Below are positions 754-63,719 of a DNA stretch of 64,000 bases, one piece after another. The stretch comes from Rhodocyclaceae bacterium (GTDB taxonomy: Bacteria; Pseudomonadota; Gammaproteobacteria; Burkholderiales; Rhodocyclaceae). Position numbers and translations under genes: made by a program. How positions within the stretch are numbered: position 1 is the stretch's first letter; each line of letters starts with the position of its first letter. The DNA is taken from positions 115,807 to 179,806 of the forward strand of contig JAVBXY010000016.1 in NCBI GenBank assembly GCA_030824275.1, given 5' to 3'. The notes under the pieces are model-generated. The model saw nothing but the letters and a program-made list of their open reading frames with translations. It ran no database searches and was not told where the DNA came from.

Positions 754-779
754 AAAAGTCGGCGCTGGTAACACGGGGA
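754..779 (+). repeat. copy of dispersed motif AAAGTCGGCGCTGG-N-ACGG(C/G)G
   Basis: AAAAGTCGGCGCTGGTAACACGGGGA, 16 nt after the stop at 738. Its first half also pairs with upstream GCCGAC (GCCGAC-AAAAA-GTCGGC). Confidence 0.85.
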
Positions 780-830
780 GGCCGTCAGGCCGGGGGTGGC
801 CCGCAGAGGCTACGGCAACTTGCGGAAAAC

Positions 831-2153
831 TCAGCCGTTCGCGCGACGCAAGATGGTTTCGCGCACCAGTTCGATATGCCCACGCAGGGTGTAGAGCATG
901 TCGGAGAAGGTCAGCGGCGTGCGTATCTTGTTGGCATCGGCGGCGATGGCGTCCAGCCGCGCCAGCCATTCCGCGCGGCTGTGTTTTCCCGGGTTCTCCT
1001 CGATCTCGCTCTCGAGAAACTTGAGTTCGCCATAGCGCCGGTATATGCGCGAACGCACACGCCAGCCGTAGAGGCTGGGCGCGAACTTGAACAGCGGGAA
1101 AAGCACGGCAAGGATCGGCACCAGCATCACCACCATGCGATCCACCAGGGTCGCGGCCCAGAAGGGCAGATAGCGCTGAAGGAAGGGCTTGCCCGACTTG
1201 TAATAACGCTCCGCCTCCTTCGACAGCGGGAACTCGCTGTGGCCGGCGCGGGGAAACTCGTCGGGCTTCTGGAACACACCGGGGGCGCCATGCACCTCAC
1301 CGGCCGCCTGCATCAGCAGATCGATCAGCGCCGGATGCGTGTCCTCGCGCACCAGCAACGAGGCCATCGGCGACACCAGTTGCGTGTCCCGTGACGGGAT
1401 GTCGCGCACCATGTCGATGGCACCGCGCGGCAGCACGAGGCGGGCCAGATGGGGCAAGCGTCGCGCGTAGGCCTCGGCGTGGCTCAGGCTCATCAGCTTC
1501 ACGCCCGGCGTGTAGAGCAGCGCCCAGACCAGCGAGGACTGGGTCGGGCCGACGACGAAGACCGCATCCAATTCGCCGGACTGCAACTTGGCGGCGAGAC
1601 CGAAACCGCCCTCCTCGACCAGTCGCGTGTTCTTCGCATCGATGCCATTGGCAGCGAGCAGTTCCATCGCCAGGTATTGGGTGCCGCTGCCGGGACCGCC
1701 GACAGCAATGCGATGGCCCTTGAGATCGAGCACCTGTTCCGTGTTCTTGAACACCGTCTCGCGATAAAAAATCCACAGCGGCTCGTAATACAGATCGCCG
1801 AGGGACACCAGGCTATCGTTCTCGGCGATCCGCGCCGTGCCGCCCTGAATGAAGCCGACATCGATATCGACCGCCGCATCACGCAGGCGTTGCAGGTTTT
1901 CCGTGGCGCCCGCCGAGGGCTTGCCCACCAGTTCGATGCCGTAGCGGGCCAGCACTTCCTTGTATTGGATGGCGAAGCGCTGGTAGGCGCCGCCCTCGCC
2001 GCCGGTGCTGATCACCAGACGGTTCGGCGGCGCCGGCTTGATGAACTGGGCCGCGCCCCAGAAGGCGAGGCCAACGACCAGCAACAGGGGCAGCGCGACG
2101 AAGAACAGGTCGTGCCAGGAAAGTTGGCGGAGTTTTTCAGGCATGGGCCGCAT
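831..2153 (-). CDS. TAXI-family TRAP transporter solute receptor with C-terminal membrane segment
   Basis: N-terminal TM/signal segment, then LVISTGGEGGAYQRFA, typical of TAXI receptors as I recall them. Hydrophobic helices near the C-terminus. Overlapping ORFs are shadow frames. Confidence 0.7.
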   Translation of the reverse strand: MRPMPEKLRQLSWHDLFFVALPLLLVVGLAFWGAAQFIKPAPPNRLVISTGGEGGAYQRFAIQYKEVLARYGIELVGKPSAGATENLQRLRDAAVDIDVGFIQGGTARIAENDSLVSLGDLYYEPLWIFYRETVFKNTEQVLDLKGHRIAVGGPGSGTQYLAMELLAANGIDAKNTRLVEEGGFGLAAKLQSGELDAVFVVGPTQSSLVWALLYTPGVKLMSLSHAEAYARRLPHLARLVLPRGAIDMVRDIPSRDTQLVSPMASLLVREDTHPALIDLLMQAAGEVHGAPGVFQKPDEFPRAGHSEFPLSKEAERYYKSGKPFLQRYLPFWAATLVDRMVVMLVPILAVLFPLFKFAPSLYGWRVRSRIYRRYGELKFLESEIEENPGKHSRAEWLARLDAIAADANKIRTPLTFSDMLYTLRGHIELVRETILRRANG

Positions 2154-2183
2154 TATAGGCAGCGGCCCATGCCTGACAGATTT

Positions 2184-4762: not shown

Positions 4763-4835
4763 GCTGTCCTCCTTTATTGGTATGGCGCAACTTTAGGGCC
4801 TCGCCTACAATTTGCACAGTGCAATGTTTTGATGG

Positions 4836-7494: not shown

Positions 7495-7645
7495 TCGGCG
7501 GGATGGGAGGTCGCGGGTTGTTATAAGTGTCGGATTCTGGGCTGAAGCTGCCGCTAAGTGTTACTACTGATGACATCCGCCTTCGGCCAGAAGCTGCCCT
7601 TCGGGCTGGGACCCGAAAGCGGCCACTCATAGCCACAATCCTGAT

Positions 7646-7676
7646 TTGACAGTTATCCACAGGCGTCCGGTATATT
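7646..7676 (+). promoter_or_regulatory. candidate sigma70-type promoter facing the cassette genes
   Basis: Perfect -35 TTGACA (7646-7651) and TATATT (7671-7676). The 19-nt spacing is at the long end, and no TSS data are available. Confidence 0.35.
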
Positions 7677-7808
7677 GGAGTTGTTATACTGACCGCATAA
7701 ATACCAAGTGACTGAAAGTCATGGACAAAAACTGCCGAATTCCGCGTCATCAATATCAATTGTTATACGGACCCCAGGGTCCGTGTAAACACTGTTAGCG
7801 AGCATCCT

Positions 7809-8081
7809 ATGAACTTCGGGGTCATCGGCCTTATTTGCTTGGCTAGTGCGTTAATCGCGTTCTTTTCCGGCCGCTTCTCATGGGGTTTCTTGGCGCCATT
7901 TATTGGAGCTGCGTTATTTCTGCTATCGGACAAGCCAACTGAACACTATGGCTTTGCATTAGGTGTCTTAGCTATGGCAGCAGTGCCGTTGGGCATCATT
8001 GCTCTGGTTGGGGCATCAATTGGTTTCGCTCTTTCTCCGTGGAAAAAGAGTAGCAAGAAAAATGAAATCAGCACGCCTTAA
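7809..8081 (+). CDS. small hydrophobic membrane protein (cassette ORF), function unknown
   Basis: 90 aa with about three hydrophobic helices and a lysine-rich tail. It sits between the two core sites. Confidence 0.5.
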   Translation: MNFGVIGLICLASALIAFFSGRFSWGFLAPFIGAALFLLSDKPTEHYGFALGVLAMAAVPLGIIALVGASIGFALSPWKKSSKKNEISTP

Positions 8082-8084
8082 TTT

Positions 8085-8153
8085 CGCTAACCCGCCAGTC
8101 GAGAGGGACGCTTCGCAGCATAGCCGCTCGCGCCCCTCACTTTTACGTTAGGC
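8085..8153 (+). other. attC-like site 1
   Basis: 69 nt. Begins CGCTAAC 4 nt after the stop codon and ends GTTAGGC. Internal imperfect pairing GAGGG-a-CGC / GCG-c-CCCTC. Confidence 0.4.
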
Positions 8154-8168
8154 ATCTACCAAACACCT

Positions 8169-8930
8169 ATGGAAACTGAAAGGATGGCCTGGGCCGATCG
8201 GGCGGAAGCATCGGGATACCTTCCGCACATCCGGGCGATAGCACAGAACTCCACGGTTCCCATCTGGTGGTCGCGCTCCTCGTCGCCAATCGGCAGTGCT
8301 GTACTCCATAACGGAACTGCCACTTTTGTTCATACCGGCAATAGGACGATCTGTGTTACTGCTGGCCACGTGTTCGAGAAGTACCGCGCGCAAAAGAAGG
8401 AGTTCGCGGATTTTGAGTGCCAGGTCGGAAGTGTTCGAATCGAACTCGAAGACTATCTGGTCGACTACAGCAGTAGCCTAGATCTCGCAACTTTCGAACT
8501 GCCCCCGGTTCTTTTGGCTGCCTCTCGAGCTTCTGCTCATGGAGCGCAAAAATGGCCACCAACCGCCGTCGCAGAATAGGACATTGTCATACTTGGCGGA
8601 TATCCGGGTCTTCTTCGCATCGAAGAGAGTGGGCGACTCGGAACACCATTCGTGTCATTTCTAGCTCCAATCGCACAGGTGTCCTCGGATCATTCAGCCA
8701 TCCAACTGAATCTCGAAGATTCGTATTGGCCCGATGGTTCTGGTGGGCTTGCTCCCGCATCTGAGCTTGGAGGCATGAGCGGTGGACCGCTATTTCGCTA
8801 TCGGACTGAGCCTGTGGAATATTTCGAACTCGTGGGATTCATCTATGAGGCGAGTACTTCATACGGAATCATCTTCGCGAGGCACGCCTCATGCATCGAC
8901 GACTCTGGCCGAATCGCGGCCGATGCCTAA
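8169..8930 (+). pseudogene. trypsin-like serine protease interrupted by one in-frame TAG (8577-8579)
   Basis: Track ORFs 8169-8579 and 8652-8930 are in the same frame, and that frame is open from 8580. Triad candidates are His in VTAGHV, Asp in SLDLAT and Ser in GGMSGGPLF. DIVILGGYPG immediately follows the stop. Confidence 0.7.
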
Positions 8931-8982
8931 CCCGTCATTGCAGCGGACTGCCTTCGGCAGCCGCTGAACTCCAACGTTCCTG
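8925..8982 (+). other. attC-like site 2
   Basis: 58 nt. GCCTAAC overlaps the stop codon. A 13-bp stem TT(G)CAGCGG(A)CTGCC / GGCAGCCGCTGAA has two bulged bases on the 5' arm. The site ends CAAC-GTT. Confidence 0.5.
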
Positions 8983-9124
8983 AGTGTCCGCATTCGCTAG
9001 CGGGTTACTTCCGCTATGGGTCGGGAGCAGCCGCTTGATTGGTCTTAACTAGACGGCCGCTTTGGTCGAGGACAGCCCCTATCCTTTGCCCTAACACAAG
9101 CACTACAGCTTGCTGTCTCTAGGA

Positions 9125-9150
9125 TCGCCGTACCACCAGCGCCGACTTTT
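9125..9150 (-). repeat. copy of dispersed motif
   Basis: Reverse complement reads AAAAGTCGGCGCTGGTGGTACGGCGA. About 80 nt downstream of the LysR gene stop, in sense orientation. Confidence 0.85.
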
Positions 9151-9230
9151 CCTGTCTCCTTGCCTGCTCCACGATTCTCGATGCCCAGATATGAGGCCTC
9201 GGCTAGAAGGTCCGCCACACAAAGCTTCGC

Positions 9231-27423: not shown

Positions 27424-30099
27424 ATGCGCACCGAAACTCCCCAGACCATCTACCTCAAGGACTACACCGCACCCGCCTGGCTGATCGACAGCGTCGATCT
27501 CCATGTCGCCATCCACGACGGATATGCCGAGGTGCGCGCCAAACTCGCCTGCCGCCGCAATCCGCAAGGCGCGGGCGGTGATCTGGTCCTCGATGGAGAA
27601 GAACTGACGTTGCAGGAAGTCGGCCTTGACGGTACGGCGCTTGCCCCGTCGCGCTACACCGTGGGCGAGGAAACCCTCACCATCCACGGCCCCCTGCCCG
27701 ACGCCTTCATGCTGGAAACCCTGGTGCGCATCGAGCCGGACAAGAACACCCAGCTCTCCGGCCTCTACAAATCCAAGGACGGCTACTTCACGCAATGCGA
27801 GGCCCAGGGCTTCCGCCGCATCAGCTTCTACCCGGACCGGCCCGACGTCATGGCGCGCTTTACCTGCGCCATCGAAGCCGACAAGGCGCGTTTCCCGCAA
27901 CTGCTGTCCAACGGCAATCTGGTCGCCTCGGGTGATGCTGACGGCAACCGCCATTGGGCGCGCTGGCAAGACCCCTACGCCAAGCCCGCCTATCTCTTCG
28001 CCCTCGTCGCCGCAAAACTCGACGTGCTCGAAGACCGCTTCGTCACCGGCTCCGGCCGCAACGTGCGCCTCGCCGTGTACGTCGAACCGGGCAAGCTCGA
28101 CCAGTGCGACCACGCCATGGCCGCACTGAAGAAAAGCATGCACTGGGACGAAGTGACTTTCGGCCTGGAGATGGACCTCGACCATTACATGATCGTCGCC
28201 GTCGGCGACTTCAACATGGGCGCCATGGAGAACAAGGGTCTCAACATCTTCAACACCAAGTACGTGCTGGCCCGCCCTGACACCGCCACCGACACCGACT
28301 ACCAGAACATCGACCGCGTCGTCGCCCACGAGTATTTCCACAACTGGACCGGCAACCGCGTCACCTGTCGCGACTGGTTCCAGCTCTCGCTCAAGGAAGG
28401 CCTCACCGTCTTCCGCGATCAGGAATTCGGTGCCGATGTGCATTCCCGCGCCGTTACCCGCATCCAGGAAGTGCGTACCCTGCGCGTCGCCCAGTTCCCC
28501 GAGGACGCCGGCCCCATGGCCCATCCGATCCGGCCCGCCTCCTACGCCGAGATCAACAACTTCTACACCGCCACGGTGTACGAAAAGGGCGCCGAAGTCG
28601 TGCGCATGATCCATACCCTGATCGGCCGCGAGAATTTCCGCAAGGGCATGGACCTCTACTTCCAGCGCCATGACGGCCAGGCCGTCACCTGCGAGGATTT
28701 CGTCGCCGCCATGCAGGATGCATCTGGAACAGACCTCACCCAGTTCCGCCGCTGGTACGCCCGCGCCGGCACGCCGCGCCTGAAGGCCGAGGGCAAATAC
28801 GATGCCGCCGCCCAGCGCTACACGCTCACGCTGACCCAGAGCCTCGCCCCCACCGCCTACGAGCAACGCCTCAAGGAAGCTGGCTTCGCCATCGAGGATG
28901 GCCCGCTGCACATCCCCGTCGCCCTCGGCCTGGTGCTGCCGGACGGCAGCGATGCGCTGCCCGACCTGACGCATGTGCTCTCGCTGACCGAGACCACGCA
29001 GACCTTCGTCTTCGACCACATCCCGGCGCAACCCGTCGCCTCGCTGCTGCGCGACTACTCGGCCCCGGTGCATCTGGACTTCGAACAATCGGACGCCGAA
29101 CTGGCCCATCTGATGGCCCACGACAGTGATCCCTTCAACCGCTGGGAGGCAGGCCAACGCCTTGCCACCCGCGTGCTGCTGGCCGGCATCGCCGTCGCCG
29201 GCGAAGGCAGCGACTGGATACCCGAGGCCTTCGTCGCCGCTGTCGGTCGCGTCCTCGACGACGGCCTGAAGCACGACCCGGCGCTGGCCGCCGAAGCCCT
29301 CGTCCTCCCCGCCGAACAGGTGCTGGCCGAAGAGATCGCCGGGCGCGGCGAGGCCATCAATCCCGACGCCATCTACCTCGCCCGCCTCGCCCTGCGCCGG
29401 CACCTCGCCGCTGCCCTGCGCGAGAAATTCGAGATGGCGTGGTCCGCCCTCGCCCGCTCCCTCGCCGAAGGCCCCTACTCCCCCGAAGGCCCCCAGGCCG
29501 GTCGCCGCGCTCTGCGCAACCTCTGCCTCGGCTATCTCGCCGAATGCGATGCCGCCTATCTCGCATCCACCGTGCTGCCGCAACTGATGGCCCAGTTCGA
29601 AAACGGCGGCAACATGACCGACGTCATCGCCGCGCTGGGCACCCTGGCCAACCTCGACCTGCCCGAGCGCGACCAGGCCCTCACCGCCTTCTACGAACAA
29701 TGGAAGGATGAAGCCCTGGTGGTCGACAAGTGGCTGCAAGTGCAGGCCACCTCGCGCCTGCCCGACACCACCGCCCGCGTCCGCAGCCTGATGCGCCACC
29801 CGGCCTTCGACATCAGGAACCCCAACAAGGTCTACTCGCTGGTGCGCGCCTTCTGCGCCGCCAACCCGCGCCACTTCCACGCCGCCGACGGCAGCGGCTA
29901 CCAGCTCGCCGCCGACGTCATCCTCGAATTGCAGGCCATGAACCCCCAGGTCGCCTCGCGCATCGCTCGGACCTTCGACCGCTGGCGCCAGTTCGATGCC
30001 GTCCGCCAGTCCCACGCCCGCGCCGCCCTCGAACGCGTGCGCGCCTGCGAAGGCCTGGCCAAGGATGTGGCCGAAGTGGTCGGCAACGCACTGGGCTGA
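27424..30099 (+). CDS. pepN: aminopeptidase N
   Basis: 891 aa with GAMEN and HEYFHNWTGNRVT..WFQLSLKEG gluzincin motifs. Confidence 0.97.
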   Translation: MRTETPQTIYLKDYTAPAWLIDSVDLHVAIHDGYAEVRAKLACRRNPQGAGGDLVLDGEELTLQEVGLDGTALAPSRYTVGEETLTIHGPLPDAFMLETLVRIEPDKNTQLSGLYKSKDGYFTQCEAQGFRRISFYPDRPDVMARFTCAIEADKARFPQLLSNGNLVASGDADGNRHWARWQDPYAKPAYLFALVAAKLDVLEDRFVTGSGRNVRLAVYVEPGKLDQCDHAMAALKKSMHWDEVTFGLEMDLDHYMIVAVGDFNMGAMENKGLNIFNTKYVLARPDTATDTDYQNIDRVVAHEYFHNWTGNRVTCRDWFQLSLKEGLTVFRDQEFGADVHSRAVTRIQEVRTLRVAQFPEDAGPMAHPIRPASYAEINNFYTATVYEKGAEVVRMIHTLIGRENFRKGMDLYFQRHDGQAVTCEDFVAAMQDASGTDLTQFRRWYARAGTPRLKAEGKYDAAAQRYTLTLTQSLAPTAYEQRLKEAGFAIEDGPLHIPVALGLVLPDGSDALPDLTHVLSLTETTQTFVFDHIPAQPVASLLRDYSAPVHLDFEQSDAELAHLMAHDSDPFNRWEAGQRLATRVLLAGIAVAGEGSDWIPEAFVAAVGRVLDDGLKHDPALAAEALVLPAEQVLAEEIAGRGEAINPDAIYLARLALRRHLAAALREKFEMAWSALARSLAEGPYSPEGPQAGRRALRNLCLGYLAECDAAYLASTVLPQLMAQFENGGNMTDVIAALGTLANLDLPERDQALTAFYEQWKDEALVVDKWLQVQATSRLPDTTARVRSLMRHPAFDIRNPNKVYSLVRAFCAANPRHFHAADGSGYQLAADVILELQAMNPQVASRIARTFDRWRQFDAVRQSHARAALERVRACEGLAKDVAEVVGNALG

Positions 30100-30124
30100 A
30101 AGTCGGCGATGGCGATACGGCAAG
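30099..30124 (+). repeat. copy of dispersed motif (GATG variant)
   Basis: AAAGTCGGCGATGGCGATACGGCAAG, starting at the last base of the pepN stop codon. Confidence 0.8.
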
Positions 30125-30532: not shown

Positions 30533-30874
30533 GTGAGTGGATTTGAAAACTTCGCCGCCGAAGCCGCCAGCATCGAACTAGAACTCCAGCGCAAGGGCGT
30601 CGCCCTCGGCATCGACTGGGAAGACGAAGTCCAGACCCGCGACCTCGCCCGCGCCGCCCTGGCCTGCAAACCCGGCAAGGCCGGCTGCAACTTCGACGAT
30701 CCCATCGAGGCCGCGCGCTTCGCACTCTTCGGCCTTGCCCACCTGATGCTGCACGTCATGCAGGAAAGTGCCGGCGAACACATCCACACCCACGGCGGCC
30801 CGGTCTGGAAAGCCTTCGCCCGCGCCCTCTGGGCCGAACACGACATACGGGAAAGCGGGAGAGACACCGAATGA
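30533..30874 (+). CDS. hypothetical protein (113 aa)
   Basis: GTG start. Coding-like frame translationally coupled (ATGA) to the next gene. No recognisable domain. Confidence 0.5.
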   Translation: MSGFENFAAEAASIELELQRKGVALGIDWEDEVQTRDLARAALACKPGKAGCNFDDPIEAARFALFGLAHLMLHVMQESAGEHIHTHGGPVWKAFARALWAEHDIRESGRDTE

Positions 30875-31221
30875 TCTACTACGCCATCAAGATCACCCTC
30901 TCGGCGCTGCTGATCGTCGCCATCTCGGAAATCGCCAAACGCTCCACCGGCTTCGCGGCGCTGCTCGCCTCACTGCCGCTCACCTCGCTGCTGGCCTTCA
31001 TCTGGCTGCACGTCGAAGACACCCCCAGCGAAAAGATCGCCGAGCTGTCCAGCCAGGTGTTCTGGCTGGTGCTGCCCTCGCTGGTCCTCTTCCTGCTGCT
31101 GCCAATACTGCTGCGCCAGGGCCTCAACTTCTGGCTCAGCCTGAGCCTCTCCGCCGCCGCCACCGCCGGCTGCTACGCCGCCATGCTGCCTCTGCTGCGA
31201 CGCATGGGCGTGGCGATCTGA
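30871..31221 (+). CDS. small membrane protein (DUF3147-like)
   Basis: MIYYAIKITLSALLIVAISEIAKRS and four hydrophobic helices. Family assignment is from memory. Confidence 0.6.
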   Translation: MIYYAIKITLSALLIVAISEIAKRSTGFAALLASLPLTSLLAFIWLHVEDTPSEKIAELSSQVFWLVLPSLVLFLLLPILLRQGLNFWLSLSLSAAATAGCYAAMLPLLRRMGVAI

Positions 31222-31264
31222 AAAGTCGGCGCTGATGAAGCCACTGCGCTACAAGGCGGTCGAG
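31222..31264 (+). repeat. left 43-nt inverted repeat (dispersed-motif head plus 27-nt extension)
   Basis: AAAGTCGGCGCTGATGAAGCCACTGCGCTACAAGGCGGTCGAG. Matches the reverse complement of 33882-33924 at 42/43 positions. The motif tail GATGGCGACACGGCGAA follows at 31290-31306. Confidence 0.9.
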
Positions 31265-31312
31265 CAAAAGACGCTCTCCTCGCCGTAGCGGATGGCGACA
31301 CGGCGAAACGAA

Positions 31313-31714
31313 TTAAGGCTGCGTCAGCGACCAGTGGGTTTGCACGATGCGCCAGCCCACCGCATCGCGCCGATAGACCTCCGTGCAGTTCCACAACATG
31401 CGCGGCCCATCGCCATTCCATGACGCGAAATTGAAAGACAGCGCCGCCATCTCGCCGGCCTCCTGCACCACCGGACTCGACAGCTCGAAATGCTCGGCCC
31501 GGATCGTCCCCCGCAAGCCCTCGTAATACGCTGTCAAGGCTGGCAGCCCGTCGATGCGGCGAGGAATGAAGGGATCGAAATACACCACATCCTGCGCCGA
31601 GATTTCCAGAAAGCCGCCCGGGTCGCCATCCAGCCAGCGGCGTAACGCCGCCCGTTCGAGGTGGATGACTTCGTGTTCGGTGGAGTCTGCGGTACCGTCG
31701 ATACAGGCTGTCAT
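31313..31714 (-). CDS. NTF2-like (SnoaL/DUF4440-type) protein
   Basis: 133 aa from the ATG at 31714. Typical small alpha+beta cone pattern (..FLEISAQDVVYFDPF.., ..WNCTEVYRRDAVGWRIVQTHWS). Confidence 0.6.
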   Translation of the reverse strand: MTACIDGTADSTEHEVIHLERAALRRWLDGDPGGFLEISAQDVVYFDPFIPRRIDGLPALTAYYEGLRGTIRAEHFELSSPVVQEAGEMAALSFNFASWNGDGPRMLWNCTEVYRRDAVGWRIVQTHWSLTQP

Positions 31715-31947
31715 ATCAAGTTCTTTTCTGAACATTCTGTTATCAGCACATGCTAGCGGGCTATTGCCATGCCGTGGCAATAGGCGTTAAATCCAGTCCG
31801 TAGCGTCTGGCGGACAAAAAGCGGCGGGGGCACGTTGCTGGAGAAGCACAAATTTTGGATGCACTAAATGATGTCGCCACAGGATTTATTCCAATGATTT
31901 TTTAATCAGTTCCGCCCGATTTAGCCGTCCTAATAATAGGAATCCAT

Positions 31948-32718: not shown

Positions 32719-32748
32719 CCACGAGGCCAATCCCATCATTCCACCGGA

Positions 32749-32772
32749 CCTTGCGCATAACGCTGCGCAAGG
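32749..32772 (+). promoter_or_regulatory. hairpin CCTTGCGC-N8-GCGCAAGG between the two island genes
   Basis: Perfect 8-bp stem. The 3' arm contains the only SD-like AAGG upstream of the GTG at 32776. Confidence 0.35.
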
Positions 32773-32775
32773 CCT

Positions 32776-33129
32776 GTGAAATTGAACGTTGAAGGTCGCG
32801 TGCGCTGGCTTGAACTTTTGCTCGCAGCCATCTTTGGAGCGCTATTCACGGCCTTTCAGTTTCTGTCTGGTCAGTGGTGCGAGCCAACACTCGTTCGTCC
32901 CGTCGCCGGAATTTTCGTCGTCCTAACAGCTGTGCTGTACTTGTACTTCGTTGACGACGAGCGGCGGCCGTTGGTCGGGGTGTGGCACCGCATGCTTTTT
33001 GGGGCAGCGGCAGGTTTTGTTGTGGCCGCTATCTCGAATGGACCTTCCGAGCTATACGCTTTGCTCACGCTTGTAGGCGCCATGCTCGGGTATGTTGGCT
33101 TCCGTTGGCTCAAGCATGTCCCAATCTGA
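32776..33129 (+). CDS. small 4-TM membrane protein, function unknown
   Basis: Four hydrophobic helices in 117 aa. Start is the GTG at 32776 or 32800. Same strand as, and 57 nt after, the NDT-like gene. Confidence 0.5.
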   Translation: MKLNVEGRVRWLELLLAAIFGALFTAFQFLSGQWCEPTLVRPVAGIFVVLTAVLYLYFVDDERRPLVGVWHRMLFGAAAGFVVAAISNGPSELYALLTLVGAMLGYVGFRWLKHVPI

Positions 33130-33199
33130 CCCTCAACGCATCCGTCAACTCGGACGCGCCGTGACGAAGCCGCGTCTCGCCAGTTATATCAGACGTCCT

Positions 33200-33210
33200 C
33201 CCCCCCCCCC
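33200..33210 (+). repeat. C11 homopolymer tract
   Basis: Eleven consecutive C read directly from the sequence. Intergenic, 41 nt upstream of the higB -35 box. Confidence 0.95.
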
Positions 33211-33250
33211 ACGGGAGTGCCTGTGTCTTCAGGGCGGGTAGTAGTAACGC

Positions 33251-33279
33251 TTGACGTTATGTCCGCTACGCGTTAATCT
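33251..33279 (+). promoter_or_regulatory. candidate higBA promoter
   Basis: TTGACG-N17-TAATCT. The -10 ends 6 nt before the higB ATG. Flanked by the inverted hexamers TAACGC (33245-33250) and GCGTTA (33270-33275). Confidence 0.5.
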
Positions 33280-33285
33280 TTTCCG

Positions 33286-33567
33286 ATGGCGATTCGGAGC
33301 TTCAAGTGCAAGGACACACAGGCGCTCTTCCTCGGCAAGAGGGTGCGTCGCTGGGTTAATGTTGAGCGGCCCGCACTACGCAAGCTTGAACAACTTGACT
33401 GGTCTGCTGTCCTGGAAGACCTGCGTGTGCCGCCCGGCAATCAATTGGAAGCATTGAAGGGGAATCGCAAGGGACAACATAGCATTCGCATCAACGATCA
33501 GTGGCGAGTGTGCTTTGTTTGGACCGTGGAAGGCCCGAAAAATGTCGAGATTGTGGATTACCACTGA
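33286..33567 (+). CDS. higB: HigB-type (plasmid maintenance system killer) toxin
   Basis: 93 aa. IRSFKCKDTQALF..LEALKGNRKGQHSIRINDQWRVCF is the HigB/killer-protein pattern. Confidence 0.9.
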   Translation: MAIRSFKCKDTQALFLGKRVRRWVNVERPALRKLEQLDWSAVLEDLRVPPGNQLEALKGNRKGQHSIRINDQWRVCFVWTVEGPKNVEIVDYH

Positions 33568-33578
33568 AGGAGCTAATC

Positions 33579-33878
33579 ATGCGCACGGTTCCCCCTGTTT
33601 CTCCCGGCGAAATGCTGGAAGAGGAATTCCTGAAACCACTCGGTCTGACCAAGTACCGCCTGGCCAAGGATATCGGTGTGCCCCCCCAGAGAATCGGGGA
33701 TATCGTGGCAGGCAAGCGGGCCATTACGGCCGACACCGATTTGCGGCTGTGCCGATACTTTGGGCTCAGCGATGGCTGGTGGCTTCGAGGGCAGGCTAAC
33801 TACGACACAGCAGTCGCTCGCGAAATCATGGGCGAAGCGCTTTCGCGTATTTCCAAGTGTCGCCTTCTTACTGCCTGA
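33579..33878 (+). CDS. higA: HigA-type antitoxin (XRE HTH)
   Basis: GAAGGAG RBS. PVSPGEMLEEEFLKPLGLTKYRLAKDIGVPPQRIGDIVAGKRAITADTDLRLCRYFG. Confidence 0.9.
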   Translation: MRTVPPVSPGEMLEEEFLKPLGLTKYRLAKDIGVPPQRIGDIVAGKRAITADTDLRLCRYFGLSDGWWLRGQANYDTAVAREIMGEALSRISKCRLLTA

Positions 33879-33881
33879 GTC

Positions 33882-33924
33882 CTCGACCGCCTTGTAGCGC
33901 AGTAGCTTCATCAGCGCCGACTTT
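33882..33924 (-). repeat. right 43-nt inverted repeat
   Basis: Reverse complement is AAAGTCGGCGCTGATGAAGCTACTGCGCTACAAGGCGGTCGAG. Starts 4 nt after the higA stop. Confidence 0.9.
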
Positions 33925-39666: not shown

Positions 39667-39692
39667 TCGCCGTGCCATCAGCGCCGACTTTT
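39667..39692 (-). repeat. copy of dispersed motif
   Basis: Reverse complement is AAAAGTCGGCGCTGATGGCACGGCGA. 5 nt after the pntB stop, in sense orientation. Confidence 0.85.
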
Positions 39693-39697
39693 CTGGA

Positions 39698-41113
<1,416 letters not shown>

Positions 41114-48989: not shown

Positions 48990-50035
48990 CAGAACTCCGG
49001 GTAAAGACGGCCGGGATTGAAGACGCCGTAGGGATCGAAACCCTGTTTCAGGCGGCGATGAATTTCCATCACGGGCGTGGGCAACGTACCGAAGACGCCT
49101 GCGGCGCGCTGTTCCTGGCTGGCACCGCGAAACGCCGTCACACCAGCGCCGACTTTTTCGCGCAGCGTCGTCGCATCGAACTCACCGCGCAGCCAGCGCT
49201 GGGCGCCGCCCCATTCGATGAGTTGCGGACCGGGCAAATCCAGTGACGGCGTGACGGAGGGCAGGGACAGGCGCCACAGGGGAGCATTGTCACTTGGGCC
49301 GGCGAAGAAGTCGGCACTTTGTTCCCGCAGCGAAGTCCAAAACGCCTCGGCGTCTTCCACGCGCTCGCCACCCAACTTGACGCAGGCCGAGTCGACGGCA
49401 GCACGGGCGCCCGCCAGTTGCAGGCTCAGCACGCCGTCCTGCCAGCAGGTGGCGGCCACCGGCAGCGGCTGGCCGGCCCAGCGGTTCATGGCCTCCAGCG
49501 CCTTGTCCTGCGGCAGTTCGAAACGCAGCGTAGCCTCGGCCACCGGCAGCGGCAGCACCTTGAGCGAAACCTCGAGGATCAACCCCAGGGTGCCAAGGCT
49601 GCCGGCCATCAGACGCGAGACATCGAAGCCGGCGACGTTCTTCATCACTTCGCCGCCGAACTTGAGCACGCGGCCTTCGCCGTCCATGATCTGCACGCCC
49701 AGCACGTAGTCGCGCAGGCTGCCGACCGCCGCCCGGCGCGGGCCGGAGAGGCCGGCGGCAACAGCACCACCGATGGTTGCATTGCCAAAGACCGGCGGCT
49801 CGAAGGGCAGGAACTGTCGCCGTGCCGCCAGCGCCGACTTTATTTCCTCCACGGGCGTGCCGCAGCGGGCGGTGACCACCAGCTCCGTCGGCTCGTAGCT
49901 GACGATGCCGGCATGAGCCCGCGCATCGAGAAACTCGCCGACCAAAGGCCCGCCGTAAAAATCCTTGCTGCCGCCGCCACGAATGCGCAGGGGCTTGCGT
50001 TCGAGGATGCGCGATCGGAACTGGTCGATCATCAC
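48989..50035 (-). CDS. glcE: glycolate oxidase FAD-binding subunit
   Basis: PCMH-type FAD-binding domain. Positioned between glcD and glcF with overlapping stop/start codons. Confidence 0.9.
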   Translation of the reverse strand: MMIDQFRSRILERKPLRIRGGGSKDFYGGPLVGEFLDARAHAGIVSYEPTELVVTARCGTPVEEIKSALAARRQFLPFEPPVFGNATIGGAVAAGLSGPRRAAVGSLRDYVLGVQIMDGEGRVLKFGGEVMKNVAGFDVSRLMAGSLGTLGLILEVSLKVLPLPVAEATLRFELPQDKALEAMNRWAGQPLPVAATCWQDGVLSLQLAGARAAVDSACVKLGGERVEDAEAFWTSLREQSADFFAGPSDNAPLWRLSLPSVTPSLDLPGPQLIEWGGAQRWLRGEFDATTLREKVGAGVTAFRGASQEQRAAGVFGTLPTPVMEIHRRLKQGFDPYGVFNPGRLYPEF

Positions 50036-57525: not shown

Positions 57526-58542
57526 CTAGCTGGCGATGGCGCTTGCATCGCGGGACAGATCCGCGATGGTCGCATCGTCCAGCGTCGCCAGTTGGCAGGC
57601 GATCTTCAACCAGTGATCGCGTCCGCGCTCGGCCACAGCTTGCAATCTCGCCGTGTCGCCAGCGCCGACTTTTGCAAGGGCCGGAAACAACTCACGGCGC
57701 ATGCCATCGAAGCTGGCGAACCAGAAATGCAAGGAGGCAGCGGCGTCGCGCTCGATCAGGCGCGGCAGGGTGACCAGGCAATCGGCCAGGTTGTCGCGCA
57801 CAGCGCGGACAAGAATTTCGGCGCGCTTGTCGGTCAGTCGCGCCATCATCGCCGGCCAGGCCGGCCCGAGCAGGCGTCCAGCGGCGATCTCGCCTTCCTC
57901 GTGCAGCACCAGGGTTTCGATTTCGCTGTCGGTCATGCGCTCGACGGCGGCGGCCGGATCCTCGGCAAAGCCCCAGGCGTCGAGGGCCGACTTGAGGGCG
58001 CCATCCTGCTTCTTCACCGCCCAGCCCTCGGCCTTTTCCCACAGCCATTGCCGCAAGGCCTCACGGCGAACGACGATGGTGTCGTCGCGAGAGGCAGCGG
58101 GAATGGCCGAGACATCGCGGGCGTATTCGCAGCCGGAAACCAGCAGGCGCACGCCATCCCGCCGCTCGTCGCGGGCCAGGCGGCCGAGAAAGAAATGCGG
58201 CTTGCCGAAGCGGCCGATCCCGGCGCCATAGACGAGGCCACTGCCAGCGAGCCGCTCGTTGATCGCGGCGGCGGCGAAGGGATCGTGTTCGTCGCCCCCC
58301 ACGCTCACGGCGGCATAGTCTTCCGTGGCGATGCCTTCCCAGCGCGATTCGCGCTCGGCAATCCAGCGGCCGACGTCGGCGCGGGGCGGTTGCACGCCAT
58401 AGGGCAGTTCGTGCTCCCAACGATAGAACTCGCGCATGCCGAGCAGGTAGGTGCACAGCGTGACGTCACGGGCGTGGCGCGCGTCGGCGATGTCGCAGTT
58501 GTGCTGCACGTTCGCCACCAGCGCGGCCATACCGGGAATCAC
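57526..58542 (-). CDS. hypothetical protein (338 aa), last gene of a five-gene operon
   Basis: Good coding frame with a 4-nt start/stop overlap with the upstream gene. No domain recognised. Contains one intragenic dispersed-motif copy (57648-57673). Confidence 0.6.
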   Translation of the reverse strand: MIPGMAALVANVQHNCDIADARHARDVTLCTYLLGMREFYRWEHELPYGVQPPRADVGRWIAERESRWEGIATEDYAAVSVGGDEHDPFAAAAINERLAGSGLVYGAGIGRFGKPHFFLGRLARDERRDGVRLLVSGCEYARDVSAIPAASRDDTIVVRREALRQWLWEKAEGWAVKKQDGALKSALDAWGFAEDPAAAVERMTDSEIETLVLHEEGEIAAGRLLGPAWPAMMARLTDKRAEILVRAVRDNLADCLVTLPRLIERDAAASLHFWFASFDGMRRELFPALAKVGAGDTARLQAVAERGRDHWLKIACQLATLDDATIADLSRDASAIAS

Positions 58543-59304: not shown

Positions 59305-59685
59305 CTACTCCACATAACGTTTGGTCGCGCGGCGGCGACCGGGTTTCGACTTCTGGATGATGACGCCCTTGACCGCATCGAGGTCGGGGATATTCGTCGC
59401 GGGATAAGCCGGATTCAGCGCCTGCAAGCGCCAACCACCATCGCGCTTCGCCAACTGGCGGAAGATCCATTCGCCATCCAGTTGGGCGAGGACGAAGGAA
59501 CCATCGGTGGCGAGGCCCTCGGGTTCGATGAGGATCACCTCACCGTCGAGGAATTCCGGTTCCATGCTGTCACCAAGCACCATCAGGGCAAAGGGCTCGG
59601 CCGAGCTGCATGCATCGAGGGCGGGGTCTTCCGCCGGGGCTTGCGGGTGGATGGGAATGATCTTGCGCGGCGTCATAGGCGTCAT
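59305..59685 (-). CDS. stand-alone S24 (LexA/UmuD-like) peptidase domain protein
   Basis: GDSMEPEF Ser motif and a downstream Lys (VIIQKSK). No HTH domain. The ATG at 59685 lies 1 nt after the upstream stop. Confidence 0.8.
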   Translation of the reverse strand: MTPMTPRKIIPIHPQAPAEDPALDACSSAEPFALMVLGDSMEPEFLDGEVILIEPEGLATDGSFVLAQLDGEWIFRQLAKRDGGWRLQALNPAYPATNIPDLDAVKGVIIQKSKPGRRRATKRYVE

Positions 59686-59686
59686 G

Positions 59687-61132
59687 TCACAGGGCTTCCG
59701 TATGCAGTTGGGCCGTCGGCAGACCGGCGGCGACGAGGGTGGCGGCAAGGGCGGCGAGCGCGTCCGCCGGCCCGGCGAGATAGACCTCGCTGGCGGCCAG
59801 CAGCGGCTCGGCGACGAGGGTGTCGGCAAGCTGATCCGGCGCCAGCGGGATGTAGCGGAAATCGTCCAGCGCATCGGCCCAGGCCCGGCACTGGTTGGCG
59901 AGGTAGATATCGCCAGCACGATAGAGCCGGATGGCGGGGGCGGCGTCGACGGCGATGGCATGTTCGATCAGACTGCTGACCGGGGCGAAGCCGGTGTCGA
60001 TAGCAACGAAAATCAGCGGCCGCTGCGATGCGTTGTCGAGAACGAAATTTCCCCATGGCCCCCAGACCGAGATGTCGTCTCCGGCCTTGATGTCGCCGGC
60101 GAAAAGGTGCGTGGAAAAGTCGGCGCTGGTGGCACGGCGACCATCGCGGTGAATATGGAAAATCAGGTTGCGATCATCGCAGGGACAACTGGCAATCGGG
60201 TATTCGCCATGCGTGCCGGCGGCGCTGCCCGCAGTGCTCCCCAAGGTGACCCGCTGACCGGCGAGGAAGCGCAGCCGATTGCTGCGCGGCGTTTGCAGAT
60301 GCAGGCGCAGAACGTTCTCGCCGACCGCCTCGACGCTGCGCACGCGGGCGACGATGCGCTGTTCTGGTATTTCCTCCGGCGCACCGGCTTCGAGCACTTC
60401 CAGCACGAGGTCGGAACTGACGGCGGTGCAGGCACACATCAGCACATGGCCCTGGGCTTTCTCGGCCTCGGTGAAACGGTAGTCGGATGCCGCCACCTGC
60501 TGGGTGGTACCGGAAATCACGCGCGCCTTGCACAGGCCGCAGTTGCCATTGCCGCAACCGTAATTCGGCGCGAGGCCGGCACGCAGGGCAGCCTTGAGCA
60601 GGGTCTCGGCGCCATCGACGTAATAGTCGCGACCGGACGGGCGCACGCTGACATGCGCCGACATCACGCGCAGCGTGGCATCGACGGCATCCATGTCGCC
60701 CAGTGGCGCCGGCGCCGCGAAGGCGGCGGCCATGCCTTCATCGAGCAGGGCGGCCATTTCAGCGGTGGATGGCGGTGCATCGCCATCGAGCCGGGCTCGC
60801 AGACCTTCCATGACAGCGTGGTAGCGGGTCAGCACGCGGCGCAGTTCGGCGAGTTCCTGGCCCTGGGCGAAGAGCCGCTGGGCCAGCACCTCCTGGGTCG
60901 GCAGCACGCGCTCGCGCAGGCGCTTGGCGAAGGCATCATCGCGGATCGCCACCACCTTCTCGAAGGCGCCGGAAGTCACTGTTTCCGCACCCGGCCAGAC
61001 GCGCAGCAACTCCGCCTCGGCGATCATGCCGTCATGGGAAGCGAGATCGCCGTTGCGGATGCGATCCTGCAAGTCGGTGCGCGGAATGCCGAGCAGATGC
61101 GCGGCGCGGGAGAGGGTCAGCCAGTGCGACAT
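59687..61132 (-). CDS. HTH / plant-type [2Fe-2S] ferredoxin / FNR-like FAD-NAD(P) reductase fusion
   Basis: N-terminus LTLSRAAHLLGIPRTDLQDRIRNGDL. Cluster CGNGNCGLC..C. FAD motif RLRFLAGQRVTL..GEYPIAS. NAD motif LIFVAIDTGFAP. The start may be 61144 or the GTG at 61153. Confidence 0.8.
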   Translation of the reverse strand: MSHWLTLSRAAHLLGIPRTDLQDRIRNGDLASHDGMIAEAELLRVWPGAETVTSGAFEKVVAIRDDAFAKRLRERVLPTQEVLAQRLFAQGQELAELRRVLTRYHAVMEGLRARLDGDAPPSTAEMAALLDEGMAAAFAAPAPLGDMDAVDATLRVMSAHVSVRPSGRDYYVDGAETLLKAALRAGLAPNYGCGNGNCGLCKARVISGTTQQVAASDYRFTEAEKAQGHVLMCACTAVSSDLVLEVLEAGAPEEIPEQRIVARVRSVEAVGENVLRLHLQTPRSNRLRFLAGQRVTLGSTAGSAAGTHGEYPIASCPCDDRNLIFHIHRDGRRATSADFSTHLFAGDIKAGDDISVWGPWGNFVLDNASQRPLIFVAIDTGFAPVSSLIEHAIAVDAAPAIRLYRAGDIYLANQCRAWADALDDFRYIPLAPDQLADTLVAEPLLAASEVYLAGPADALAALAATLVAAGLPTAQLHTEAL

Positions 61133-61240
61133 GCGGGCAAGCATAACCAGCACGGAGAATCCCGCGATATCAATTTTTTATGGCCGATTAATCACGGCTT
61201 GCTAATATTCCATGCTTCCGCCACGCCTATTCCCGCTCCC

Positions 61241-63019
61241 ATGAAGCCCGCCGAGTCCGCCCTGCTGCCGCGCCTGTTCCCCTTCCTGCGCTGGTGGCCC
61301 CAGGTGAATCGGACAAGCATGCGGGCCGACCTGATCGCCGGCCTGATCGGCGCCATCATCGTCCTGCCGCAGGGCGTCGCCTTCGCCACCCTGGCCGGCA
61401 TGCCGCCCGAGTACGGCCTCTACGCCGCGATGATCCCGGCGGTGATCGGCGCCCTCTGGGGATCGAGCTTCCATCTGGTCTCCGGCCCCACCAACGCCAT
61501 CTCCCTGGTGGTCTTTGCCACCATGAGCCACCTCGCTGATCCGGGCTCGGCGCAGTACGTCTCACTGGTGCTGACCGTCACCTTCATGGTCGGCGTAATG
61601 CAACTGGTGATGGGCTTCGCCCGGATGGGCACGCTGGTTAACTTCATCTCCCACACGGTGGTGATCGGCTTCACCGCTGGCGCCGCGATGCTGATCATCG
61701 GCAGCCAGATGAAGAATTTCTTTGGCCTCGACATCCCGCGCGGCACGGTGTTCTTCCGCGTCTTCGAGTTCTTCTTCACGCATCTGACCGAGATCAAGCC
61801 CTGGGTGTTCACCGTCGGCATGGCCACCCTGCTCTCCGGCATCATCGTGCGCAAGCTCGCGCCCAAGATTCCCTACATGATCGTCGCCATGCTAGTCGGC
61901 AGCTTCACGGCGCTGGGCCTCAATGCCTGGCTGGGCCAGGACGTCACCGGCATCCGCACCCTCGGCGCCCTGCCCGGCGCCCTGCCGCCGCTCTCGGCAC
62001 CGCATTTCCACTTCGACACCATGCGCGACCTGCTTTCCATCGCCATTGCCATCACCGCCCTGGCGCTGACCGAAGCCGTCTCCATCGCCCGTTCCATCGG
62101 CGTCAAATCGAACCAGCGCATCGATGGCAACCAGGAGTTCATCGGCCAGGGCCTGTCCAACATCGTCGGTTCCTTCTTCTCCGGCTACCCGTCCTCCGGC
62201 TCTTTCAACCGCTCCGGTCTCAACTACGAGGCCGGCGCGAAAACGCCGCTGGCCGCTGCCTTCTCCGCCGGCTTCCTGATGATCGTGCTGGTCGGCGTCG
62301 CGCCGCTCGCCGCCTACCTGCCCATCGCATCGATGGCCGCCATTCTCTTCCTGGTCGCCTGGGGCCTGTTCGACTTCCACCACATCGGCGTCATCATCCG
62401 CAGCAGCAAGGCTGAGCTGGCGGTACTCATCGTCACCTTCATCGCGACGCTGGTGATCCACCTGGAAGTCGCGATCCTGCTCGGCATCGTGCTGTCGATG
62501 GTGTTCTACCTCAATCGCACCTCGCAACCGGCAATCCGTACCGTCGGCCCCAATCCAAAAGACCCGGCACGCAAATTCCTCGCCGTGGCGCCAGGGGAGC
62601 CCGAATGTCCGCAACTCAAGATTTTGCGCATCGAAGGCTCGCTGTATTTCGGTGCCGTCAATCACGTCGCCGAAACCCTGCAAATCAATGCCGAGCAACA
62701 CCCCGAACAGAAGCACCTGTTGCTGATGGCCAAGAGCATCAACTTCGTGGACATTGCCGGCGCCGAACTGCTGGCGCAGGAAGCGCGCTCACGCAAGAAA
62801 CGCGGCGGCAGCCTCAGTTTCTACAGCCTGCGCGCAGGCGCTGAAGCCATGCTGATGAAGCCGGACTACGTCGCCGACATCGGTCGCGATGCAGTACACG
62901 CCAGCAAGCACGGCGCCATCGCCGCCTGCGTGGCCAAGCTCGACCACGAAATCTGCCGCCGCTGCACCGCCCGAGTTTTCAACGAATGCGCTAACCTGCC
63001 AGCTCCCAAATCCGCCTGA
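61241..63019 (+). CDS. SulP-family anion permease with C-terminal STAS domain
   Basis: The ATG at 61241 lies inside a long shadow ORF. AGLIGAIIVLPQGVAFATLAGMPPEYGLY, a multi-TM core and a STAS-like tail. Confidence 0.93.
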   Translation: MKPAESALLPRLFPFLRWWPQVNRTSMRADLIAGLIGAIIVLPQGVAFATLAGMPPEYGLYAAMIPAVIGALWGSSFHLVSGPTNAISLVVFATMSHLADPGSAQYVSLVLTVTFMVGVMQLVMGFARMGTLVNFISHTVVIGFTAGAAMLIIGSQMKNFFGLDIPRGTVFFRVFEFFFTHLTEIKPWVFTVGMATLLSGIIVRKLAPKIPYMIVAMLVGSFTALGLNAWLGQDVTGIRTLGALPGALPPLSAPHFHFDTMRDLLSIAIAITALALTEAVSIARSIGVKSNQRIDGNQEFIGQGLSNIVGSFFSGYPSSGSFNRSGLNYEAGAKTPLAAAFSAGFLMIVLVGVAPLAAYLPIASMAAILFLVAWGLFDFHHIGVIIRSSKAELAVLIVTFIATLVIHLEVAILLGIVLSMVFYLNRTSQPAIRTVGPNPKDPARKFLAVAPGEPECPQLKILRIEGSLYFGAVNHVAETLQINAEQHPEQKHLLLMAKSINFVDIAGAELLAQEARSRKKRGGSLSFYSLRAGAEAMLMKPDYVADIGRDAVHASKHGAIAACVAKLDHEICRRCTARVFNECANLPAPKSA

Positions 63020-63693
63020 TGAGGGCCATGGACGCCTATTTCAACGACCTGGTCGCGCTGCTGCTGAGCGTCGTCGTCTTCTTCGCCTATCAGTGGCATG
63101 TCAATCGGCGCAGCCGCATCGACCCGCACTACAGCATCCAGCAGGTGATCAACGCGGCACGGGTGGCCTGGGTGGAAACCGTGATGAAGGAACGGCGCGA
63201 CATCCTCGCCGTGCAGACATTGCGCAACTCGATCATGGCAGCCAGCTTCCTGGCCTCGACCGCGATCCTGCTGATCATCGGCGTGCTGACACTCTCCGAG
63301 CAGGGCGACAAGCTGTCCAGCGCCTGGCACGCACTCAACTTCATCGGCCACGTGGCGCCGCAGATATGGTTGGTCAAGCTGCTGGCGATGCTGCTCGACC
63401 TGCTGGTGGGCTTCTTCAGCTTCGCCATGGCGATCCGCCTGTTCCACCACGTCGGCTACCTGCTCAATGTCCCCATCGGCAGCCACGACTTCGCCCAACC
63501 GGTCCACGTCGCCGCGCAACTCAATCGCGCCGGCCGCTTCTACAGCATCGGTACCCGCGCCTACTACCTGCTGGTGCCCTTGCTGTTCTGGCTGTTCGGC
63601 CCGCACTTCCTGATCATCGCCACGCTGCTGCTGGTCTGGGTGCTGTTCCACCTGGACCGCAGCCCGCGTCGCGATGAGGATTTGATCGGCTGA
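63019..63693 (+). CDS. DUF599-family membrane protein
   Basis: 1-nt overlap with the SulP stop. Three to four TM helices with ..VAWVETVMKERRDILAVQTLRNS.. Family assignment is from memory. Confidence 0.7.
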   Translation: MRAMDAYFNDLVALLLSVVVFFAYQWHVNRRSRIDPHYSIQQVINAARVAWVETVMKERRDILAVQTLRNSIMAASFLASTAILLIIGVLTLSEQGDKLSSAWHALNFIGHVAPQIWLVKLLAMLLDLLVGFFSFAMAIRLFHHVGYLLNVPIGSHDFAQPVHVAAQLNRAGRFYSIGTRAYYLLVPLLFWLFGPHFLIIATLLLVWVLFHLDRSPRRDEDLIG

Positions 63694-63719
63694 TCGCCGT
63701 CCCCTCAGCGCCGACTTTT
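63694..63719 (-). repeat. copy of dispersed motif
   Basis: Reverse complement is AAAAGTCGGCGCTGAGGGGACGGCGA. 20 nt after the stop of the partial minus-strand gene. Confidence 0.85.

Follow-up and report, generated by a model that had tools for sequence, protein, structure and literature searches.

Introduction

Sequence-specific recognition of self DNA before uptake is described for two bacterial families, the Neisseriaceae and the Pasteurellaceae, which are largely host-associated (bioRxiv 10.1101/2025.10.24.684340). The DNA uptake sequence (DUS) of the Neisseriaceae, bound by the minor pilin ComP, is a word of 10–12 nt that occurs about once per kb, and the uptake signal sequence (USS) of the Pasteurellaceae has a core with spaced flanks extending over about 30 bp; about half of the copies of these signals lie in terminators, often as inverted pairs. 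Besides ComP, a receptor ComN has been predicted for such signals. Here we describe a strongly over-represented 25-nt word, made of two boxes at a fixed distance, in 64 kb of DNA from a Rhodocyclaceae bacterium (GCA_030824275.1, contig JAVBXY010000016.1, positions 115,807–179,806; this whole stretch is called the window, and positions are counted from its first letter), in related genomes and in viral contigs. Like DUS, the word belongs to Betaproteobacteria. It gives no meaningful alignment to any DUS dialect, however, and with 25 nt in bipartite form and about one copy per 5 kb it is longer and sparser. USS belongs to another bacterial class; its first bases and those of the word are superficially similar (AAGTGCGGT versus AAGTCGGCG), while its flanking part is AT-rich and degenerate, and that of the word GC-rich and exact.

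We rate the word as a genomic signal resembling uptake sequences, found in a third lineage that is environmental and reaching, unusually, into phages; by analogy with the described signals, an uptake mechanism behind it has about an even chance. The literature that we searched holds no report of the sequence, of an uptake sequence or of natural transformation in this bacterial group.

An exact word of two boxes

The 12-mer AAGTCGGCGCTG is present in 12 exact copies in the window, where 100 dinucleotide shuffles give an expectation of 0.02 and never more than one copy per shuffle, and the word supplies the most frequent 11-mer and 12-mer of the window. The original prediction, made from the letters alone, had the coordinates of 11 copies right and overlooked one at 60117 on the plus strand. 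Since the base before the 12-mer is A in 12 of 12 copies, the invariant word is the 13-mer AAAGTCGGCGCTG, which we call box 1. The arrangement AAAGTCGGCGCTG-N5-ACGGCG is found in 146 of 167 copies from the window and related genomes, with none at +4 or +6, so that the predicted second box is real but its gap is fixed at 5 nt instead of varying between 4 and 5. In the 12 window copies box 2 reads ACGGCG eight times and ACGGGG once, and three copies consist of box 1 only (21886, 31222 and 33900).

A logo of 148 copies from related genomes gives the 25-nt consensus R-AAAGTCGGCGCTG-GCGRN-ACGGCG, with about 19–22 fixed bases. Information is limited to positions –1 to +24 and the flanks outside carry about 0 bits, therefore the motif is not part of longer repeats. 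That the copies might be pieces of longer duplicated segments had been considered from the beginning; the sole longer stretch shared in the window is the 42 nt common to the pair 31222(+)/33900(–). The predicted one-mismatch copies (GATG) at 24873 and 30100 are present as well, and the half copy noted at 24921 corresponds to a degenerate inverted partner at 24917–24928. An extra one-mismatch match at 22115 looks like chance.

The copies are listed with their surroundings, as given by a gene map from a codon-usage gene caller, which is crude and was checked with Pfam (related and viral loci are numbered with the prefix L):

755–779, plus strand: motif AAAGTCGGCGCTGGTAACACGGGGA, box 2 with one mismatch; intergenic, 16 nt past the stop of a cyclic-nucleotide (cNMP)-binding/rhodanese gene, convergent neighbours
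9125–9149, minus strand: full copy; intergenic, 81 nt past the stop of a LysR gene and on the right-hand border of a low-GC island (7.5–9.2 kb)
21886–21910, minus strand: box 1 only (13-mer + GCG); intergenic, antisense to both neighbours, followed by a short hairpin and a degenerate inverted partner
24872–24896, plus strand: one-mismatch copy (GATG), box 2 intact; 7 nt past the stop of a uvrA-like gene, left arm of an inverted pair
24905–24929, minus strand: degenerate inverted partner of the 24872 copy; downstream of a convergent GGDEF gene
30099–30123, plus strand: one-mismatch copy (GATG; box 2 is ACGGCA); overlaps the stop codon of an aminopeptidase N-like gene by one base
31222–31246, plus strand: 13-mer; abuts the stop of the open reading frame (ORF) 30871–31221 and opens the left 42-nt inverted repeat of a 2.7-kb island
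33900–33924, minus strand: 13-mer; opens the right 42-nt inverted repeat of the same island, 17 nt upstream of the start of a rhodanese gene
39667–39691, minus strand: full copy; 6 nt past the pntB stop, with an orthologous intergenic copy in L116
40237–40261, minus strand: full copy in pntB; sense frame 0 (KVGAGETA), in the variable linker from the membrane domain to the NADP(H) domain
49132–49156, minus strand: full copy in a glcE-like FAD_binding_4 gene; sense frame 0 (KVGAGVTA)
49817–49841, minus strand: full copy in the same glcE-like gene; sense frame 2 (KSALAARR), the motif-free orthologous site differing by 3 bases
57648–57672, minus strand: full copy in a DUF6866 gene; sense frame 0, with orthologous copies in L036 and, as a T variant, in L239
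60116–60140, plus strand: full copy in a SulP/STAS transporter gene; sense frame 0
63694–63718, minus strand: full copy; intergenic between convergent genes, 21 nt past the stop of the minus-strand gene

With about 64% GC, the window is unremarkable chromosomal DNA. Among its genes are uvrA, ssb, pntAB, glcDEF-like genes, LysR regulators and a SulP/STAS transporter. Scans of the window with Rfam and for tRNAs gave no families and no tRNAs.

Copies within and between genes

The window and 115 related loci together hold 165 exact 13-mers, 93 in coding sequence (56%) and 72 intergenic. With a fraction of 0.84 of the DNA called as coding, this amounts to an intergenic enrichment of about 2.7-fold. 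The predicted closeness to stop codons is broadly borne out by the gene map, several intergenic copies lying 0–20 nt from a stop. The five intragenic copies of the window are all sense and all in Pfam-confirmed genes (the pntB linker, the glcE-like gene twice, DUF6866 and SulP), and here the predicted rule that orientation follows transcription holds. Elsewhere it weakens to a mild bias: the intragenic copies of the full set are 54 sense and 39 antisense, and the intergenic ones occur in all arrangements (tandem co-oriented 20, tandem opposite 12, convergent 13, divergent 10). The transcription-linked orientation is a small-sample effect, for which the benign peptide of the sense frame, KVGAGxTA, plausibly accounts.

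Of the six reading frames, copies within genes occupy four, on both strands (KVGAGxTA 43, KSALAxRR 11, AVxPAPTF 22 and RRxASADF 15), with only two copies in the other two frames. Known uptake sequences display the same type of reading-frame pattern (bioRxiv 10.1101/2025.10.24.684340). KVGA tetrapeptides are encoded by AAAGTCGGCGCT in 43 of 51 cases, although only 0.5% would be expected from codon usage, with GCT a 6% codon; such overuse means that the cause lies in the DNA and not in the peptide. An explanation at the peptide level was ruled out by this one rare codon string, and an element acting at the RNA level or oriented by transcription by the presence of intragenic copies on both strands.

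Distribution across genomes

The exact 24-nt pattern was scanned for in a collection with one genome per species. It was found in at least 115 stretches, from about 68 assemblies by a hand count of the matches listed, and among these matches nearly all are from Sulfuritalea, the isolate Sulfurisoma sediminicola BSN1, Rugosibacter, or metagenome-assembled genomes (MAGs) of Rhodocyclaceae/Rhodocyclales. Sulfuritalea, Sulfurisoma and Rugosibacter are all placed in the NCBI family Sterolibacteriaceae. By our estimate from base composition, chance would supply at most about 15 matches in the whole collection, and these would be scattered taxonomically.

The PntB protein of the window shares 92% identity with proteins encoded by Sulfuritalea-labelled MAGs, and PntB orthologues were used as anchors that sample DNA independently of the motif. 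One such relative, L116 (Sulfuritalea sp. GCA_030689915.1), has two exact and two near copies in 16.6 kb. No copy within two mismatches was found in about 21 kb of syntenic DNA each from L117 (Sulfuritalea sp. GCA_030247575.1), L118 (Georgfuchsia toluolica), L241 (Rhodocyclaceae GCA_019635085.1) and L242 (Methyloversatilis universalis). Presence in L116 and absence from these four PntB-anchored relatives make the trait clade-specific, with a patchy distribution in close relatives. In Georgfuchsia another candidate word, CGAGACGCTGG, has four copies; it was dropped because they have no shared context.

Two motif loci, met by chance, contain prepilin-type genes. In L035 (positions 560–1379, a Rugosibacter MAG) the motif abuts the stop of a gene for a 264-aa prepilin-type protein, whose recognised part is the N-terminal methylation domain. 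L082 (757–1527) encodes a homologue of this protein, with the motif in the locus and not adjoining the gene; across the two loci there is no consistent association of such genes with the motif.

Copies arise by substitution

Orthologous sites with and without the word let its origin be followed. At the glcE-like site the sequence is GGAGTCGACGCTGGCGGCACGGCGC in the motif-free L117, GGAGTCGGCGCTGGCGGCACGGCGT in L116 and AAAGTCGGCGCTGGCGGCACGGCGA in the window; on this comparison the window copy is an earlier near-match perfected via a few substitutions, two of which alter amino acids. In the PntB linker an example from the motif-free genomes reads CCCAAGGCCGCAGCCGGTGCATCGGCC (PKAAAGASA) and the window AAGAAAGTCGGCGCTGGTGAGACGGCG (KKVGAGETA), so that PKAAAGASA is rewritten to KKVGAGETA with the length unchanged relative to Methyloversatilis. 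L116 and its nearest motif-free relative are separated by a 12-nt indel in this variable linker. As a separate observation, the linker between the PntB domains (window 40200–40290 and the aligned loci) comes in two length architectures among these Betaproteobacteria; the motif is present in both, implying independent origin or allele transfer. Sites common to several motif genomes are glcE site A, the pntB linker, the spacer after pntB and DUF6866.

At the glcE and pntB sites the comparison with motif-free genomes thus gives substitutions and no inserted unit. Copies come into being in situ, through point substitutions that prevail over codon usage and alter the encoded residues. A comparable behaviour is known from HIP1 (GCGATCGC) of cyanobacteria, a highly iterated 8-nt palindrome linked to methylation. 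HIP1 is likewise an over-represented word of a clade, spread by nucleotide substitution in and between genes, but it is a short palindrome and the word described here is asymmetric and bipartite over 25 nt.

Sharpness of the word and possible dialects

In the related loci, exact 13-mers number 153, those with a single mismatch 52 and those with two mismatches 86. In the IMG/VR collection the exact pattern is found in at least 120 stretches and its single-base variants in 16 (C9T), 2 (G8A), 1 (C9A) and 1 (G7C). The exact word is about 100 times as frequent as its single-base variants. One assembly departs from the rule: in GCA_945902805.1, four of the five copies that were not picked by the search pattern, a small number, read AAAGTCGGTGCTG with a C-to-T change, and these T-type sites include orthologues of the C-type glcE, pntB and DUF6866 copies of the window. 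The T variant in this assembly is a concerted change at unlinked loci. An A variant, AAAGTCGACGCTGGGG, occurs twice on one metagenome contig. Small as the numbers are, the T and A variants look like lineage dialects.

These properties bear on whether the copies could be an array of binding sites for a clade-specific nucleoid organiser or global regulator, each kept by ordinary selection. The rigid bipartite form with its 5-nt gap would suit a two-domain or dimeric DNA-binding protein, and clade specificity, possibly with co-evolving variants, and enrichment near gene ends are consistent with such an array. On the other hand, hundreds of sites would have to be selected individually, and under a pressure high enough to bring rare codons and altered residues into core enzymes. 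Degeneracy is the norm for regulator sites, while the word is about 100-fold sharper than its single-base neighbours, and no positional relation to promoters is seen. We regard an array of this kind as unlikely.

Strand choice, folding and pairing

Copies lie on the locally G-rich strand in a ratio of 96:62. This preference was rejected as a property of the word, as it vanished after local composition was modelled: a per-locus first-order Markov model predicts 94 of 158 copies on the favoured strand and 98 are observed (z = 0.65), i.e. there is no polarity beyond composition. Local composition served here as a stand-in for the replication strand. Adjacent copies are on the same strand in 29 cases and on opposite strands in 20.

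A single motif folds weakly on its top strand (–5.9 to –7.7 kcal/mol, z = –1.6 to –2.3) and hardly on its bottom strand (–2.2 kcal/mol). The spacer position needed for pairing of the stem is variable and lacks co-variation, and the hairpin model was ruled out by these folding results. The analogy with repetitive extragenic palindromic (REP) elements and bacterial interspersed mosaic elements (BIMEs) drawn in the original prediction has not stood up. It is true that both are short abundant repeats, often found just past stop codons, and the imperfect hairpin of –6 to –8 kcal/mol on one strand would be compatible with an element of this type, or with a miniature inverted-repeat transposable element (MITE), mobilised by a REP-associated tyrosine transposase (RAYT) or another transposase. 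REP/BIME elements, however, are extragenic palindromes spreading as units, whereas the word is mostly intragenic (56%, 93/165) and has no conserved palindrome: its other strand does not fold and its spacer does not co-vary with the stem. Conserved flanks, terminal repeats and target duplications are missing, and the orthologue comparisons give substitutions instead of insertions. A mobile repeat of this type is largely refuted and retains only a very small chance.

The inverted pair at 24872–24929, between uvrA and a convergent gene, folds at –28.4 kcal/mol (z = –6.4).

Copies in phages

The word is not confined to bacterial chromosomes. A set of 149 copies from IMG/VR stands in 140 distinct contexts, and phage genes that carry it in frame 0 include those for terminase large subunits and giant phrog_9880 (virion) proteins. 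About 20 phage DNA methyltransferases end in ...PRLFEDA-KVGAGxTA-VQGDMLLPAN. The underlying 55-nt tail (the motif plus GTGCAGGGCGACATGCTTTTGCCTGCCAAC) encodes KVGAGxTAVQGDMLLPAN and ends methyltransferases as well as unrelated ORFs; we saw it in about 30 viral loci, for example L141 8766(–), L195 6646(+), L203, L206 and L161. Between viral contigs, identity sets in precisely where the motif does, pointing to probable recombination inside the shared word. In GenBank phages and PLSDB plasmids, BLAST searches with the motif and with a phage module of 72 nt yielded at most partial matches at chance level. The first copy of the window also has a viral counterpart: together with the next 40 nt (GGGGAGGCCGTCAGGCCGG...), window 754–818 is 89% identical to viral contig L138 5618–5682, and the extension GGGGAGGCCGTCAGGCCGG... 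has no further copy in the window or the loci.

It is known that the crossover hotspot instigator (Chi) of a host is enriched in its phages, and the density of Chi in E. coli is similar to one copy per 5 kb. By comparison, the word could be a Chi-like signal of self-identity inside the cell, through which a nuclease, recombination or defence complex spares or repairs word-bearing DNA, and which phages and cassettes mimic; we consider this rather unlikely, though it is the chief alternative to uptake. The 25-nt word might then be a tag that host chromosomes preserve in exact form at intervals of a few kb and that a DNA-surveillance, repair or defence system reads, and self/non-self discrimination via such a long motif would be new. 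Phages and integron-like cassettes might have acquired the word, in terminases, in methyltransferase tails and at cassette boundaries, to pass as self. What speaks for such a tag is that the word is exact and abundant in phage genes and cassette arrays (at least 120 stretches in IMG/VR versus 1–16 for variants), with one phage region reaching about one copy per 1.2 kb, and that its density in the host of about one per 5 kb is near that of Chi in E. coli. Chi and the FtsK-orienting polar sequences (KOPS) are also genome-wide over-represented words, mostly tolerated in genes. In addition, GCTGGYG in the middle of the motif is similar to E. coli Chi (GCTGGTGG), and two of the 12 window copies (9125–9149 and 60116–60140) contain the exact octamer. 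This octamer is common in the window on its own, with 22 copies, and unskewed (9 plus versus 13 minus), hence its presence in two copies is probably coincidence. Against such a tag, Chi and KOPS are strongly replication-polarised words of 5–8 nt, whereas the word has about 20 fixed bases in two rigid boxes, its strand choice does not go beyond composition and adjacent copies divide 29:20 between same and opposite strand. Its intergenic enrichment and proximity to stop codons are un-Chi-like too.

Cassette arrays and low-GC islands

Viral contig L132 (IMGVR_UViG_3300044984_002043) encodes a repressor, an HNH endonuclease, an RNA ligase and a methyltransferase, and holds about seven partly degenerate motif copies in 8.6 kb. 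These stand either at the 3′ end of an ORF before a CTAAC...GTTAG hairpin module, or after the module and before a ribosome-binding site. By eye and by folding, the CTAAC...GTTAG modules of L132, L157 and the window (8078–8152 and 8926–8982) are attC-like; attC cores (RYYYAAC ... GTTRRRY) are not part of the motif itself. In L132 4300–8608 such a module stands between nearly all small ORFs in the manner of an integron cassette array, alongside the phage repressor, and a 132-nt direct repeat (7628–7759 and 8464–8595) flanks an RNA-ligase gene set into the 5′ end of the methyltransferase gene. In L157 629–2123 a 316-nt unit is repeated 4.7 times in tandem at 91% identity, each unit made of an attC-like module and one motif.

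The window has two low-GC islands, both with zero internal motif copies. The first (7500–9230) is gene-poor, has its two hairpin modules on the minus strand and ends near the 9125 copy. One of these modules is 82% identical to a module of L132, and direct repeats of TTGTTATA are found near 7519, 7683 and 7761. The second (31222–33924) is 2.7 kb long and lies between the 42-nt inverted repeats that open with the 13-mer; it contains SnoaL-like and nucleoside 2-deoxyribosyltransferase-like genes, a small membrane ORF and a HigB/HigA-like toxin-antitoxin pair. The 29-nt extension of its inverted repeat occurs in no other locus. About 60 nt past its left 13-mer we noticed the second half of the motif, GCGACACGGCGA (~31299–31310), as if a motif copy had been split by insertion.

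One may ask whether the word is in the first place a boundary or recombination sequence of mobile DNA such as integron-like cassettes and phage modules, with the host copies as footprints or targets. The motif adjoins attC-like modules in L132 and the L157 array, identity between phage contigs begins or ends at its edge, one window island is flanked by inverted copies and the other abuts a copy. Yet most host copies are solitary, with unconserved flanks, in core genes, and derived from near-matches by substitution; no recombinase is associated with them, and they are more exact than those of the phage array. In our opinion a boundary function of this kind is quite improbable.

Discussion

The word described here would be an uptake-sequence-like self signal, spread by biased DNA uptake and recombination. 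We give this reading a probability of about 0.5, and it is the match to the described properties of DUS and USS (bioRxiv 10.1101/2025.10.24.684340) that makes biased uptake with recombination the likeliest mechanism in our judgement. From this match we infer an uptake bias, a receptor and competence of these organisms. In the proposed mechanism a DNA receptor belonging to the competence apparatus, probably a protein associated with type IV pili, would bind double-stranded DNA bearing the bipartite word; word-bearing fragments would preferentially be taken up and then recombined into the chromosome. Sites mutating towards the word would in this way be over-transmitted, a form of molecular drive, and copies would build up where they are tolerated: past stop codons, in linkers of variable protein sequence and in those four frames whose peptides do no harm. 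Receptor specificity would keep the copies exact, and a shift in specificity would change them jointly and produce dialects.

The likeness to DUS is broad. Both are over-represented exact words on both strands, in genes and in intergenic DNA, with restricted frames (four used, two avoided), an origin by point mutation and limits set by clade, and the word has hints of the dialects known for DUS; both occasionally form inverted pairs between convergent genes and contain CTG. With USS the word shares the multi-part build (core and spaced flanks there, two boxes with a fixed gap here), a similar genic share, intergenic enrichment and copies in variable protein segments. The comparison with DNA uptake sequences made in the original prediction holds for over-representation, use of both strands with no replication polarity beyond composition, coding and intergenic placement, frames, origin by point mutation and clade limits. 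It fails for terminators and pairs, in which the word is rarely found unlike DUS and USS, and for phages and cassettes, where it is abundant.

Several observations weigh against uptake. With about 19–22 fixed bases the word is much longer and richer in information than a DUS of 10–12 nt or the 9-nt core of USS. No window copy overlaps a hairpin followed by a T-run in a simple scan, from which terminators of this host may differ, and only two inverted pairs were found among about 165 copies (window 24872–24929 and L076 1360–1412, both at convergent genes). The window contains no competence genes by the gene map and Pfam. The sampling has limits of its own: the density of about one copy per 5 kb was measured on 64 kb alone, and the related loci were picked by the motif itself. 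It should also be noted that in six neisserial genomes the known uptake sequences show core-genome enrichment, and genes gained recently lack them (bioRxiv 10.1101/2025.10.24.684340), in contrast to the abundance of the motif in genuine phage genes and attC-like cassette arrays. Enrichment in phages is at least as well explained by selection on phages to mimic a host self signal that acts inside the cell. Rarity in terminators and abundance in phages and cassette arrays thus keep a Chi-like intracellular tag in play.

If biased uptake is indeed what spreads the word, its abundance in phages and cassettes would be unexpected and would raise the question whether mobile elements exploit or mimic the self signal of their hosts. 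The word could then serve as a sequence tag to trace gene flow and to link phages to hosts in metagenomes, and its long bipartite form would provide a handle for finding a new receptor; Sulfurisoma sediminicola BSN1 and Sulfuritalea hydrogenivorans sk43H are cultured members of the clade. It would be a third, unrelated uptake signal, carried by free-living Betaproteobacteria of freshwater, groundwater and wastewater, and uptake specificity would be neither rare nor bound to a host-associated lifestyle.

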